Of a stretch of 64,000 bases of DNA, positions 2,344 through 63,695 are shown one piece after another. Each line of letters starts with the position of its first letter. Within the stretch, counting starts at the first letter, position 1. The translations under genes and the position numbers were made by a program. The stretch covers positions 84,563 through 148,562 of the forward strand of contig JABIDS010000009.1 of the NCBI GenBank assembly GCA_018651605.1, written 5' to 3'. The notes beneath the pieces are model-generated. The model saw nothing but the letters and a program-made list of their open reading frames with translations, searched no databases and was not told where the DNA came from. Origin of the DNA: an archaeon (GTDB lineage: Archaea > Nanobdellota > Nanobdellia > Pacearchaeales > GW2011-AR1).

Positions 2344-3512
2344 ATGTTTACTAAGTTCTCCCCTAAATAAAATCTTTCTCTTTGATTATATTCTGGTGTT
2401 GTTAAACATGCTAATGCGCCTTTTAATCCTATCTCGTTGTCAATAACTGCATAAACTGGGACTTTGTTTACCCATTCTCTTTGAGTTGGGCCGTTATCAA
2501 ATTCATTCATTATTACTCTTGCTATTCTTTTATCTAATTCTCCTGAACCTATTTTTGTTTCAATGTTTTTCATTAAAACTCCTCCTGTTCCATATATTCC
2601 ACCTTTTGCTCCTTCATGTAATGCTAAATCATGAAAAGCTCTTCCTAATGATTTCCAGACAAAATCCATTGTTTCTCCATAAATAGATCCTGGAACTTCT
2701 TTTGCTTTTTTTGCTATGTATGCTGTAGGAATTGTTTCAGTTAATGCTTTTTTGTATTCTGCAACTTCTGCTGGATTTGTTTCTTCTGATTTTAAGAATC
2801 TATTTGTATAAAGACAGTTAAAAATATCTTCAACTCCTCTTCCTGATAAGACTGCTTCTAAGTGAGGTACATCTGATTTATATTTTTTAGAAAGGTATTT
2901 TGAAATCATTATTTCTTTTTCGTCTGAGGGATTAATTGGTAAGAACTTGTGTCCTCCTTCAGAATCAAATGGGAAGTATAATTTTTTATCTCTGTCATAA
3001 TGTAATCTGGTTGTTCCTAATCCTGTTCCTGGGCCTTGTATTGCTATTGGTGCTTTTGGAATTGCTTCTTCTAATTTATTGTTTGTATGAAGTAGTTCAA
3101 GGACGTTTAAGTTCATCTTTCCTCTTTTGAATTCTGCAATAGAATAAGCTATTGCTTTGTAATCATTTATTAAAGCTGTTGGAATTTTGGTTGTTTTGGC
3201 ATTAACTGAAAAATCGCTGTTTGTCATTATACATTCTGATCCATCTTGGTTAATTGGTCCTGCAGGACTTAAAACCATTGCATTAATATTTTTTAATTTA
3301 GTTTCTCTAAGAATATCTTCTAAAACTTCGGTGTTGAAGTCTTTTGTTCTTTGCCCATTATAGTTTGCCTTAAAGATGCAATCTAAATTTTCATTGGTTT
3401 CTGAATATACTCCTATTAAAATATTTGTTGCACTTACATCTCCTGCGATATAGAATCTTGATGTTGCCTGAGGGATTTCTTTTCTTTCTAAAACTTTTTT
3501 TTCAGTAGGCAT
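2340..3512 (-). CDS. glk: glucokinase-family sugar kinase (Glk-like)
   Basis: N-terminal FYIAGDVSATNILIG matches the GDxGGTN-type phosphate loop. GPGTGLGT is typical of the Glk family. Confidence 0.6.
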   Translation of the reverse strand: MPTEKKVLERKEIPQATSRFYIAGDVSATNILIGVYSETNENLDCIFKANYNGQRTKDFNTEVLEDILRETKLKNINAMVLSPAGPINQDGSECIMTNSDFSVNAKTTKIPTALINDYKAIAYSIAEFKRGKMNLNVLELLHTNNKLEEAIPKAPIAIQGPGTGLGTTRLHYDRDKKLYFPFDSEGGHKFLPINPSDEKEIMISKYLSKKYKSDVPHLEAVLSGRGVEDIFNCLYTNRFLKSEETNPAEVAEYKKALTETIPTAYIAKKAKEVPGSIYGETMDFVWKSLGRAFHDLALHEGAKGGIYGTGGVLMKNIETKIGSGELDKRIARVIMNEFDNGPTQREWVNKVPVYAVIDNEIGLKGALACLTTPEYNQRERFYLGENLVNI

Positions 3513-9263: not shown

Positions 9264-9415
9264 TTTCTATCCCTGCGGAAAGCCGGTTTAGAGAATCTTC
9301 GATTCTCTAACTCTCTAACTCTCTTTGAGAGAGTTGGAGACTTCACACTTTCCCTTTCCTTCCCAGGTTTTGAAATCTTCTTAGGAATTTAATAGAGTAA
9401 GAGGTTTTCAGAGAA
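9264..9415 (+). repeat. mosaic intergenic repeat, module A copy with two nested hairpins
   Basis: ccctgcggaaagccgg...cacactttccctttccttcccaggttttgaaatcttcttagg aligns with 17715-17820. Extra hairpins lie at 9288-9310 and 9317-9335, inside the stem-1 loop. Confidence 0.8.
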
Positions 9416-9461
9416 TATTAAGTAAATAAAAGTTTATAAGGGACTAACTATCTGATAAATC

Positions 9462-16137: not shown

Positions 16138-16170
16138 GGGTTTAAGGTTGGAGGTGTTAGGGTTTAGAAT

Positions 16171-16486
16171 GTTTCCTCCTCCAGCAGAGAGCCGGCTTAC
16201 GCCTTTCCCTCTCTGCCCGTTGCAGTTTTGGTAAGTTGTTAGAGGGTTTATTTTTTCAGATGAGTTTTCTTTGGTTGTTATGAGTGCGAAGTAGGTTTTG
16301 TAGAGAGTTTAAGATTTGGGTGATTCAGAGAATTAAAAATTCTCTGACTTAGAAAAATAAGCTATAAGCCCTATTATTTTTCTAATTTTAGTATTTAGCG
16401 AAGCACCCTGACGAAGTCGGGTGCGAAAGCGATATAGGATAAATGAGTAGAGCGAATGTATCTACACGAGCGGAGCGAGTGTTTAG
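16171..16486 (+). repeat. mosaic intergenic repeat, full-length copy (modules A + linker + B)
   Basis: Aligns by eye with 53125-53379, 58123-58415 and 63441-63695. Stem 1 is at 16184-16216, the nested palindrome at 16325-16347 and the bulged-T hairpin at 16403-16424. Confidence 0.85.
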
Positions 16487-16508
16487 TTGTTTAATTTTAT
16501 AGTTATAA

Positions 16509-16516
16509 TTTAAAAA
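16509..16516 (+). promoter_or_regulatory. TATA box for HAD hydrolase gene
   Basis: tttaaaaa is centred 26 nt upstream of ATG 16538. Confidence 0.45.
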
Positions 16517-16537
16517 GTGTGTTTTCTTATTCTGTTT

Positions 16538-17714: not shown

Positions 17715-17820
17715 CTTCCTCCTCCACGGAAAGCCGTGTTTCGCACTTTCCCTTTCCTTCCGAGGTTTTGAAATCTTCTTAGGGATTTAATTTATGGAGG
17801 GGAGTTTTCTTTTTTGTTGT
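17715..17820 (+). repeat. mosaic intergenic repeat, module A only
   Basis: cttcctcctccacggaaagccgtgtttcgcactttccctttccttccgaggttttgaaatcttcttaggg...ggagttttctttttt. Confidence 0.8.
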
Positions 17821-23829: not shown

Positions 23830-23874
23830 TCAGAGAAATGGTGGCGGTTCTTGGTAGAAATGCTATTTCTCTGA
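23830..23874 (+). repeat. TCAGAGAA palindromic module (10-bp stem, 25-nt loop)
   Basis: tcagagaaat...atttctctga, with the flanking gatt shared with the 16325-16347 copy. Confidence 0.65.
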
Positions 23875-24425: not shown

Positions 24426-25064
24426 ATGGTAGTTGAAAAAAATAATAAAGTGACTGTTGAATATGAAGGTAGATTTGATAATAAAGATGGCGAGGTTTTT
24501 GATAGTTCTGAAGGAAAGGAGCCGTTGAATTTTGTAGTTGGGATTGGAATGGTTGTGCCTGGTTTTGATAATGCTATTATTGGAATGGATAAGGGGCAAG
24601 AGAAAGAGATTACTTTGACTAAAGATGAGGCATATGGAGATTATAGGGATGAATTGAAGCAAAAGGTTCCTAGGAATGTTATACCTCAAGATCAGAAGCC
24701 TGAAGTTGGTATGATGATGATTATGGCTACACCTCAAGGACAGCAAATGCCTGCTAAAATTACTGAAGTTACAGATGAAGAGATTACTTTGGATATTAAT
24801 CATCCTTTGGCTGGGAAGGCACTTTATTTTAAAATAAAATTAGTAGATTATTCTGAGATGGATTCTGAGGAGTTGAAGAAGATGACTCAACCTCAGGAGC
24901 ATAATTGTAGTTGTTCTGAAGATGATGCTTGTAAAACTGGAGAGGAAGATTGTAAGTGTTCTGAAGATGGTAAGTGTGTAGATGATTCTAAGGTTGAAGA
25001 TGGTGTGGTTGGTGGGGATAAGAAAGATGAAGTTTCTATTGAAGATTTAGCTGAGGGAAAATAG
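24426..25064 (+). CDS. FKBP-type peptidyl-prolyl isomerase (SlyD-like) with acidic Cys-containing tail
   Basis: VTVEYEGRF...GEVFDSS, VPGFDNAIIGMDKGQ, INHPLAGK. Confidence 0.85.
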   Translation: MVVEKNNKVTVEYEGRFDNKDGEVFDSSEGKEPLNFVVGIGMVVPGFDNAIIGMDKGQEKEITLTKDEAYGDYRDELKQKVPRNVIPQDQKPEVGMMMIMATPQGQQMPAKITEVTDEEITLDINHPLAGKALYFKIKLVDYSEMDSEELKKMTQPQEHNCSCSEDDACKTGEEDCKCSEDGKCVDDSKVEDGVVGGDKKDEVSIEDLAEGK

Positions 25065-58122: not shown

Positions 58123-58415
58123 GTTTCCGCCACCGCGAAAATCCGTTCCTTACGTCACTTTCCCATTTTCTTACCGAGTCTTGAAATGTTGAGGAAGGGT
58201 TTATTTTTGAAGATGAGTTTTCTTTTGATTGTTATGAGAACTTAGTTTTTTACGAGTGATTAAGATTTAGGAGATTTCAGTATTTAGCGAAGCGGACTGG
58301 CGCAAGCCGTCCGCGAGAGCGATATAGAATAAGATGAGCGGAGCGAATGAAACTTGTGGAAGAGGGATATAAGCGAACGAAGTGAGTTATCTACGCGAGC
58401 GAAGCGAGCGTTTAG
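58123..58415 (+). repeat. mosaic intergenic repeat, full-length copy (with a 37-nt insertion in module B)
   Basis: Bulged-T hairpin with a GCAA loop at 58292-58314. The segment acttgtggaagagggatataagcgaacgaagtgagtt is inserted between gagcgaatgaa and atctacgcgagcg. Confidence 0.85.
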
Positions 58416-63440: not shown

Positions 63441-63695
63441 TTTCCTCCACCGCAGAAAGCCGTGCTCGCACTTTCCCTTTCTGCCCTTAGTAATCTTGAA
63501 ATCTTGTTAGAGAGTTATTTTATTCAGAGGAGTTTTCTTTTGGTTGTTATGAGGGTTAAAAAGTTTTGTATAAATATTAAGACTTAGAAGATTTCAGTAT
63601 TTTAGTGAAGCAGACTGGACTTGTCCGTCTGCGAGAACGACATAAAATAAGTGAGTGGAGCGAATGAATCTACGCGAGCGATAGCGAGTGTTGAG
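63441..63695 (+). repeat. mosaic intergenic repeat, full-length copy
   Basis: Stem 1 at 63452-63484 (gcagaaag/ctttctgc); bulged-T hairpin with a CTTG loop at 63610-63632. Confidence 0.85.

Follow-up and report, generated by a model that had tools for sequence, protein, structure and literature searches.

A palindrome nested in archaeal repeat modules is probably the left hairpin of short, inserted double-hairpin cassettes

We analyzed 64,000 nt of an archaeal genome of the order Pacearchaeales (GenBank assembly GCA_018651605.1, here G000), namely C18:84563-148562 on contig JABIDS010000009.1, and refer to this whole stretch as the window. The assembly comprises 1.0 Mb in 24 contigs at 32% G+C, and the gene content across the window is archaeal. 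One spacer, between a GTPase gene and a HAD gene, carries a composite of two repeat modules, A and B, and the linker that joins them is interrupted by a hairpin-rich segment (H). The segment begins with a palindrome, P1, which is the subject of this work. A preliminary description of this DNA had reported P1-like palindromes at three sites and a related one at 9317-9335, next to the second of them. We re-read the sequence at each place, and all four are there as described. See Table 1 for the coordinates of the features in the window.

Table 1. Positions of the palindromes, cassettes, host modules and empty sites in the window. A caret marks an insertion junction.
Feature	Position	Strand	Description
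H cassette, 62 nt	16325-16386	+	P1 + C + H2 (TTAGAAAAATAA-GCTATAAGCCC-TATTATTTTTCTAA), end ...TTTTTCTAAT; in the linker between modules A and B
P1 hairpin of H cassette	16325-16347	+	TCAGAGAATT-aaa-AATTCTCTGA; 10-bp perfect stem, AAA loop
U1 cassette	9288-9340	+	TTAGAGAATC-ttc-GATTCTCTAA + partner TCTCTAACTCTCT-ttg-AGAGAGTTGGAGA; within stem 1's apical loop in a copy of module A
P1 variant of U1	9288-9310	+	TTAGAGAATC-ttc-GATTCTCTAA
Empty H site	58270-58281	+	ggagat^ttcag, junction 58275^58276; linker 58270-58289
Second empty H site	63588-63598	+	gaagat^ttcag, junction 63592^63593; linker 63588-63608
Host repeat module A	16160-16300	+	~40 copies genome-wide, 67-84% identical (BLAST census)
Host repeat module B	16388-16505	+	~15 copies
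Module-A copy with U1 in stem-1 loop	9262-9400	+	aligned with 12 module-A copies having a 9-12-nt loop there
Module-A copy, empty for U-type cassettes	17715-17820	+	uninterrupted stem-1 loop
Hairpin with P1-like foot	23830-23874	.	TCAGAGAAAT-25 nt-ATTTCTCTGA; 8-nt foot TCAGAGAA/TTCTCTGA; fold -11.3 kcal/mol, z = -8.4

P1 is a hairpin of the form T[CT]AGAGAAT[CT]-loop-[GA]ATTCTCT[GA]A. The preliminary description had proposed a genome-wide search for further copies, and this search returned 13 perfect copies in G000 with loops of 0-6 nt, against none for a reversed control pattern. A fuzzy search allowing up to two mismatches was too noisy to widen the census. In the window, TCAGAGAA-N0-30-TTCTCTGA occurs twice where 0.01 occurrences are expected. 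All copies of P1 lie outside real genes, save one within a pseudogene; the gene gaps that they occupy are divergent in six cases, convergent in three and tandem in three. Perfect hairpins in general (stem of at least 8, loop of at most 8) are concentrated between genes in this genome, with 1.23 per kb of intergenic and 0.20 per kb of intragenic DNA, a six-fold difference by a crude gene call; the spacers hold 157 of them versus 30-45 when shuffled, an excess of about fourfold. P1 is the most coherent family among them. Its arms are perfect in 13 of 14 copies, though their hosts have diverged by about 20%. All four arm variants (TCAG or TTAG combined with TT or TC) are present, with changes in one half-site mirrored in the other. 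The distance between the arms varies (0/4, 3, 4 or 6 nt), and one form has a TATA center. As DNA, the hairpin at 16325-16347 folds at -7.5 kcal/mol (z = -5.2), and identical copies of it lie at C18:28130 and C23:71082.

A perfect inverted repeat of 10+10 bp in intergenic DNA, with 6 of 12 copies in divergent promoter regions, could be the double-stranded operator of a dimeric DNA-binding protein and P1 thus a regulon site. We consider this highly improbable, as a rigid dimer would not tolerate half-sites 3, 4, 6 and possibly 25 nt apart. Furthermore, a change in one half-site always has its mirror image in the other, three copies have convergent genes on either side, other copies are buried inside other repeats and a pseudogene, no common set of neighboring genes emerges, and the motif is absent from nearly all congeners. 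We also rejected a terminator reading, as half of the copies lie between divergent genes.

P1 never occurs alone. In G000 and in two relatives, G041 and G016, a second hairpin is found within 1-6 nt of every copy. G041 is CAYNOY01, "Ca. Woesearchaeota archaeon SRP104257_co1_44," whose S10 protein is 87% identical to that of G000. The paired hairpins form non-coding cassettes of 50-92 nt, each starting with P1, and fall into three types. In U1, P1 (TTAG...) is followed by TTCAACTCTC-loop-GAGAGTTGAA; G000 copies lie at 9288-9340 in the window, at C19:12181 and at C12:22127-22177, and the pair occurs at least 10 times in G041 and G016. In U2, P1 (TCAG...) is followed by CTTCAAAAAG-AAGGG-TTTTTGAAG. 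In H, the partner that follows P1 (TCAG...) is a long hairpin with A5/T5 arms, tipped by GCTATRWGC, and the cassette ends ...TTTTTCYRAT. The palindromes at 9288 and 9317, taken earlier for two hairpin insertions, are thus one U1 cassette, since the same pair recurs in all of these copies; the second of them, AACTCTCT-ttg-AGAGAGTT, has a stem that actually reaches 13 bp (9312-9340). A solitary half-arm, TCAGAGAAT, at 9408-9416, about 70 nt 3' of the module A that bears this U1, may be a remnant. The hairpin at 23830, a possible member of the family, has only the 8-nt foot in common with P1, with no partner hairpin and otherwise no similarity to the cassettes.

As single strands, the cassettes fold much better than shuffled sequences on either strand (z = -4.2 to -8.4); the one at 16325-16386 folds at -16.1 kcal/mol (z = -6.8). 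Pairing in the H2 stem is kept through double changes at four pairs across two genomes. The termini, TCAGA...TCTGA, form an inverted repeat of just 5 nt. Several cassettes lie outside any module, at C23:71082, on C4 and C14, at C19:19654 and on C11. A further H-type cassette at C24:24886-24975 has one mismatch in its P1 arms and a perfect hairpin, ATCCATACTT-aa-AAGTATGGAT, nested in its H2 loop. This is a third level of nesting, and the cassette supplies the final codons of a called open reading frame (ORF), 24587-24910.

Insertion of a cassette can be followed to the codon in a SIS-domain gene (phosphosugar isomerase-like) outside the window (C11:43774-44312), where a 92-nt H cassette (C11:43954-44045) separates a tyrosine codon from a valine codon. 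G000 reads GAG CAT TAT^92 nt^GTT AAT GAT, and the ortholog in genome G008 reads GAA CAT TGG GTT AAT GAT within an intact 194-aa ORF that is 62% identical; a second ortholog agrees. No base was duplicated or lost, and a frameshift and a stop result. The G000 gene is a pseudogene that has also lost its 3' third (the last ~60 codons). An intact SIS paralog is present at C24:48930-49229. Because the orthologs are uninterrupted and the G000 gene is filled, the polarity of the change is insertion.

We set the boundaries of H, from the first base of P1 to ...TTTTTCYRAT, on this codon-exact copy and then applied them to the linker between modules A and B. Empty linkers read GGAGAT^TTCAGTATTTAGCG, and the filled linker at C18:28130 reads GGAGAT, cassette, TTCAGTATTTAGCG, an exact match with GGAGAT^TTCAG as the site. 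The filled copy in the window, at 16325, shows one later C>T change. Two of the eight A-B composites are filled and six are empty. The uninterrupted linkers that the preliminary description had pointed out near 58270 and 63588 read ggagat^ttcagtatttagcg and gaagat^ttcagtattttagtg, and the simple, uninterrupted stem-1 loop it saw in the copy at 17715-17820 is likewise there. The comparison of filled and empty paralogs that it proposed, like its genome-wide search, favors insertion and, read with the boundaries from the SIS gene, reveals no target duplication.

Module A itself is also a host. In three of its copies H sits with GGGTTTATTTTT on one side and (T/G)xAGAKGAGTTTTC on the other, a place that is empty in a dozen others, and three G000 copies have U1 in the apical loop of the first hairpin. 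In G041, the same hairpin region contains U1, U2 or H after CCGG[TC], inside TTCCTTA^CGTCA or after GTCAC, with empty copies alongside. Three G041 copies have H running forward within a reversed module A, so that both orientations occur in one host hairpin. The cassettes are therefore precise insertions without target duplication, and their sites are unpaired or easily unpaired: a hairpin loop, an inter-module linker, AT-rich spacers and, once, a coding gene. The earlier view of an independently inserting, nested unit stands on these comparisons of filled and empty sites; the unit, however, is the two-hairpin cassette of ~50-92 nt and not the palindrome alone.

Compared with their hosts, the cassettes are younger or have been better kept. 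Those of the linker pair are identical at 63/63 positions versus 120/165 for the host sequence to the left (Fisher p = 1e-7), and the three H copies inside module A are 94-97% identical versus 74-80% for the host (p = 3e-4 to 0.03). This bears on the possibility that the cassette was original to the composites and that the "empty" copies are precise deletions, palindromes being prone to deletion, above all where short direct repeats flank them. Short similar words do flank some cassettes (TCAG...TCAG/TTAG at the linker, CAGAG...TAGAG in module A), and repeat-mediated loss of palindromic elements has been documented in Haloquadratum (PMC3119063). Nevertheless, we find deletion quite improbable: the cassettes are far less diverged than the hosts, the SIS gene records an insertion into once-coding sequence, and the cassettes occupy at least four unrelated contexts as well as at least three positions, in two orientations, in one host hairpin. 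Empty host copies are also the large majority in G000.

The cassettes follow the strand of the chromosome. In the window, G is in very strong excess over C on the + strand (skew of 0.2-0.58 per 2 kb), independently of gene orientation. The same holds more widely, with the skew (0.3-0.45 over ±10 kb) tracking the chromosome strand and not gene direction in the window and on C18, C19, C23 and C12; a skew of this size is unusually strong for any prokaryote. Of 14 cassettes, 13 have P1 on the 5' side of the partner hairpin when read along the G-rich strand, and 28 of 29 module-A copies are oriented in accordance with the sign of the skew, irrespective of the genes around them.

When the 3-nt loop of P1 is oriented by the partner hairpin, it reads AAA in 17 cases and TTT in 9, with both forms in each cassette type and no intermediates. 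Polymerase template switching between inverted repeats is described as homogenizing arms and inverting the spacer (PMC8604942), and it can create and maintain "compensated" stems (PMC8794818). We take the perfect arms, mirrored variants and AAA/TTT flips for products of template switching, and therefore the hairpin would form in DNA during replication. The palindrome would be kept perfect, and its loop flipped, by switching between the arms, which would yield changes that appear "compensatory." The perfect arms and mirrored variants are consequently not read as proof of selection at the RNA level. We judged G:T versus A:C wobble uninformative as a test of strand or RNA; the few imperfect copies have G:T on the G-rich strand, as the C-to-T bias of the genome predicts.

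The same observations bear on whether modules A and B are RNA genes or regulatory RNA domains, with the cassettes as variable expansion stems of a functional structured RNA. Insertions in loops and linkers, where they would be tolerated, stems kept by double changes, strongly non-random folds and a single strand orientation all accord with such an RNA. However, no Rfam match was obtained even at E = 1: in a search of Rfam 15, only two tRNAs in the window reached the gathering score, and nothing at E <= 1 was found in 16140-16520. Modules and cassettes are absent from the orthologous loci of congeners, they occur in divergent, convergent and tandem gaps alike, the same cassette lies outside any module (C23:71082, C11), and one cassette lies in a broken gene. 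The AAA/TTT loop flip is an event at the DNA level, and template switching also gives perfect arms and paired changes without selection (PMC8604942; PMC8794818). A structured RNA is therefore improbable in our view. Readings of the CTGA and GATGA words by eye as C/D box, H/ACA or kink-turn motifs were rejected for wrong box order and spacing.

Taken together, we favor the reading that P1 is the left hairpin of short, non-coding, non-autonomous double-hairpin cassettes, and we give it a probability of about 60%; the insertions are observed, and the route by which the cassettes spread is what we conclude from them. Each H copy (13/13) has a T at position -1 of its flank, and 8 of 13 have NAT, although these represent only ~9 independent events; the 3' end of H is ...AT in 12 of 13. 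Exact insertion, unpaired targets, an element filled by hairpins, a fixed strand and the T at -1 fit the "peel and paste" transposition of IS200/IS605 and REP-RAYT elements. We infer the mobilizing mechanism from sequence. The cassettes may spread by a single-stranded-DNA, hairpin-recognizing, replication-coupled route of the IS200/IS605, REP-RAYT or PATE kind, with cleavage presumably 3' of T (mostly NAT) at the target and at the 3' end of the element (...TTTTTCYRAT). Because no Y1 transposase was found in the carrier genomes, the enzyme would have to come in trans or belong to an undescribed type. After insertion, a role in RNA stability or as promoter or terminator is possible.

Several results weigh against this reading. 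The Y1 transposase domain (PF01797) had no match in G000, G016 or G041, the positive controls having given hits, and a TnpB domain was not found in G000. Of 49 genomes of the genus, 20 have Y1 genes, many of them at contig ends and as many as 11 matches in a single genome, but Y1-bearing congeners among the genomes searched for P1 (G001-G015) have no P1, and the two congener TnpA loci that we inspected (L185, L186) have no P1-like hairpins and unrelated ends. For H inside module A, the right junction is 2 nt off a simple empty site. Finally, the high identity of the linker pair extends ~30 nt to the left and ~60 nt to the right of the cassette, and therefore gene conversion between paralogous composites could explain that pair. 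All three genomes with multiple P1 copies (G000, G041 and G016) are incomplete metagenome assemblies, and insertion sequence (IS) copies often lie at contig ends; an enzyme acting in trans may thus have been missed. A scan of IMG/VR for a viral carrier turned up no cassette, just 26 chance palindromes, and no similarity to phage records was found.

The lack of a transposase in the carriers would also suit palindromes that were made in place by local template switching, or patched in by microhomology-mediated switching, with no dedicated mobility system. Template switching generates hairpins, makes them perfect and inverts their spacers (PMC8604942; PMC8794818), and at the junctions 3-6 nt of the target resemble the start of the cassette (TTCAG with TCAGAG, TTA with TTAGAG). 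However, an origin de novo cannot yield the same 50-92-nt two-hairpin sequence, loops and linker included, at unrelated loci in two genomes, and exact, loss-free junctions with a constant end, ...TTTTTCYRAT, are not obviously expected from long-range switching. We regard such an origin as unlikely. A more novel reading, which we offer tentatively and would not bet on, takes the cassettes for traces of a hairpin-insertion process, coupled to replication and not yet described, in DPANN archaea of the Pacearchaeota/Woesearchaeota type. This would involve no IS200/IS605 or RAYT transposase, but a new enzyme or an enzyme-free template switch. It would specifically target the single-stranded loops of other hairpins on one of the replication strands, and the outermost 3-4 bp of P1 (TCAG/TTAG) would possibly pair with the target.

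Similar elements are known from other genomes. Small mobile repeats of the SMR-A type are ~110 bp long, have terminal inverted repeats, cause no target duplication and insert into the palindromes of mobile repeats. The cassettes, at 50-92 nt and compared by description, have the lack of duplication and the insertion into host loops in common with them. In Haloquadratum walsbyi, SMR-A are found together with palindrome-associated transposable elements (PATEs), which come down to 52-bp "terminal-only" forms (PMC3119063). Like both, the cassettes are archaeal, transposase-free and too short to code, with palindromes at or near the ends and no target duplication; their two hairpins fill an element of 62-92 nt. 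The SMR-A of Haloquadratum prefer palindromes of other mobile repeats, giving nested conglomerates, and the 52-bp PATE remnant with its two palindromes appears to be mobile (PMC3119063). PATEs insert 3' of a fixed target word of 4-6 nt; for the cassettes, the corresponding observation is the T at -1 in 13 of 13 H copies, with NAT in 8, from ~9 independent events. The ends are where the likeness stops: PATE palindromes resemble IS605-type ends of the same genome, whereas the P1 carriers have no IS605-type (Y1) gene and the ends of the IS copies inspected in congeners are unrelated. No sequence similarity to PATEs or SMR-A is apparent, and the present elements are strictly strand-polar cassettes in a DPANN host with a 1-Mb genome.

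The preliminary description had likened the palindromes to bacterial BIMEs and to nested MITEs. A REP element is an imperfect, GC-rich palindrome with a GTAG tetranucleotide at its 5' foot; P1 is perfect and AT-rich, with T[CT]AG at the foot and no GTAG. Like the REP, BIME and REPIN elements of Proteobacteria, whose enzyme is RAYT (TnpA-REP, a Y1 HUH protein), the cassettes are short extragenic palindromes in mosaics, lineage-specific and without target duplication, and recognition of a single-stranded hairpin is presumed for them too. The 13 P1 copies in G000 are nested in or beside modules A and B. Unlike these elements, the cassettes pair two different hairpins in tandem instead of forming an inverted REP doublet, and no cognate RAYT/Y1 gene was found in G000, G016 or G041. 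The likeness to BIMEs thus holds for the architecture and fails for membership. MITEs (inverted-repeat transposable elements of miniature size) carry terminal inverted repeats linked to a DDE transposon and mostly duplicate their target. The cassettes, like MITEs and Rickettsia palindromic elements (RPEs), are short, non-autonomous repeats able to land in genes, but the comparison with MITEs falls on the absence of a duplication at both the codon-exact and the linker site. Rickettsia elements insert in frame and are translated, whereas the genic H cassette here breaks the frame.

The double-hairpin elements and repetitive hairpin-forming elements (RHE) of fungal and sponge mitochondria are also small intergenic units of two hairpins, patchy among close relatives and with no associated enzyme known (PMC2800124). 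Those of Allomyces lack flanking duplications, and an RNA intermediate was proposed for them (PMC2800124). The cassettes have the same two adjacent hairpins, dispersed and without flanking duplication; this class is descriptive and defined in organelles, not a homologous family, and with unrelated sequences the resemblance remains one of description. Overall, the cassettes behave like REP/RAYT, PATE and MITE elements yet lack features that define membership, and are best filed as transposase-free palindromic mobile repeats.

Small palindromic repeats such as REP, BIME, PATE and RPE leave their mark on the genomes of bacteria and haloarchaea, and the 1-Mb genomes of DPANN archaea are thought to be streamlined. 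Our literature searches found no comparable small palindromic repeats for DPANN archaea. In the present case, nested hairpin insertions are tolerated in a tiny genome and apparently continue to arise there, with no recognizable transposase. Given empty sites that are exact to the codon and to the paralog, three types of cassette and several carriers, this is a tractable case for the transposase-free spread of hairpins. It also calls for caution in RNA-structure prediction, as perfect "compensated" stems can stem from template switching and not from selection.

Multiple copies of P1 are confined to G000 (13), G041 (33) and G016 (5), and ~240 other genomes of the family have 0-1 copies each. Among the other genomes of the genus (n = 24), one has a single copy, as do three of ~200 genomes from ~190 other genera of the family; single copies occur by chance in many unrelated genomes. 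The relatives that share P1 are labeled Candidatus Woesearchaeota or Nanoarchaeota metagenome-assembled genomes (MAGs). A Chloroflexota MAG, Flexilinea sp. RGIG2505 (L001-L115), has a multi-copy long-stem hairpin, cccgaGGAGATTCAGAGAAT-nn-ATTCTCTGAATCTCCtcggg, with an apex identical to that of P1; it shares the GGAGAT that flanks the C18:28130 twin and shows AA/TT loop flipping. We rejected it as a relative of P1, as it is an unrelated family of long-stem hairpins and the resemblance is probably a coincidence. In some genomes, tRNA genes or fragments directly adjoin P1 and its partner (L187 and L189 in G016, L192 and L163 in G041, L044 and L049 in other Nanoarchaeota MAGs). Direct repeats enclose a tRNA-linked P1 in G016, one of 11 nt (TGCCTTGGGCG) and one of ~45 nt of the 3' part of the tRNA, and at L163 a tRNA begins, with its first base, right next to an H cassette. 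In G000, every P1 is more than 1.2 kb away from the nearest tRNA gene.

On a larger scale, the host modules also come and go between relatives. Relatives lack the A-H-B composite in the orthologous spacer between the GTPase and HAD genes, and the two genes abut, or nearly so, in several of them; those from the metagenome scan, at no more than 81% amino acid identity, are informative on the whole composite and too distant for the nested site. Upstream of S10, G016 and G014 lack module A and its cassette (the U1 of 9288-9340 in G000). In G041, a composite of module A and U2 lies directly beside the RNase P RNA gene (Rfam RF00373, 138 bits; L007:6344-6675). This RNA is of the archaeal type and lies in a region syntenic between G041 and G000, and the corresponding G000 site (C13 ~1450-1800) has no module. 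Elsewhere in G041, two composites of a reversed module A and H, at 3374 and 5398 of L056 (G041:C9), flank a segment of ~2 kb. The homolog of this segment in G000 (C2:20343-24483) lies ~3.5 kb off, and its flanks are contiguous there (C2:24273/24327); therefore, these composites sit at rearrangement break points. Another P1-bearing module, at L081, also lies at a synteny break (C12:97287 / C6:17094).

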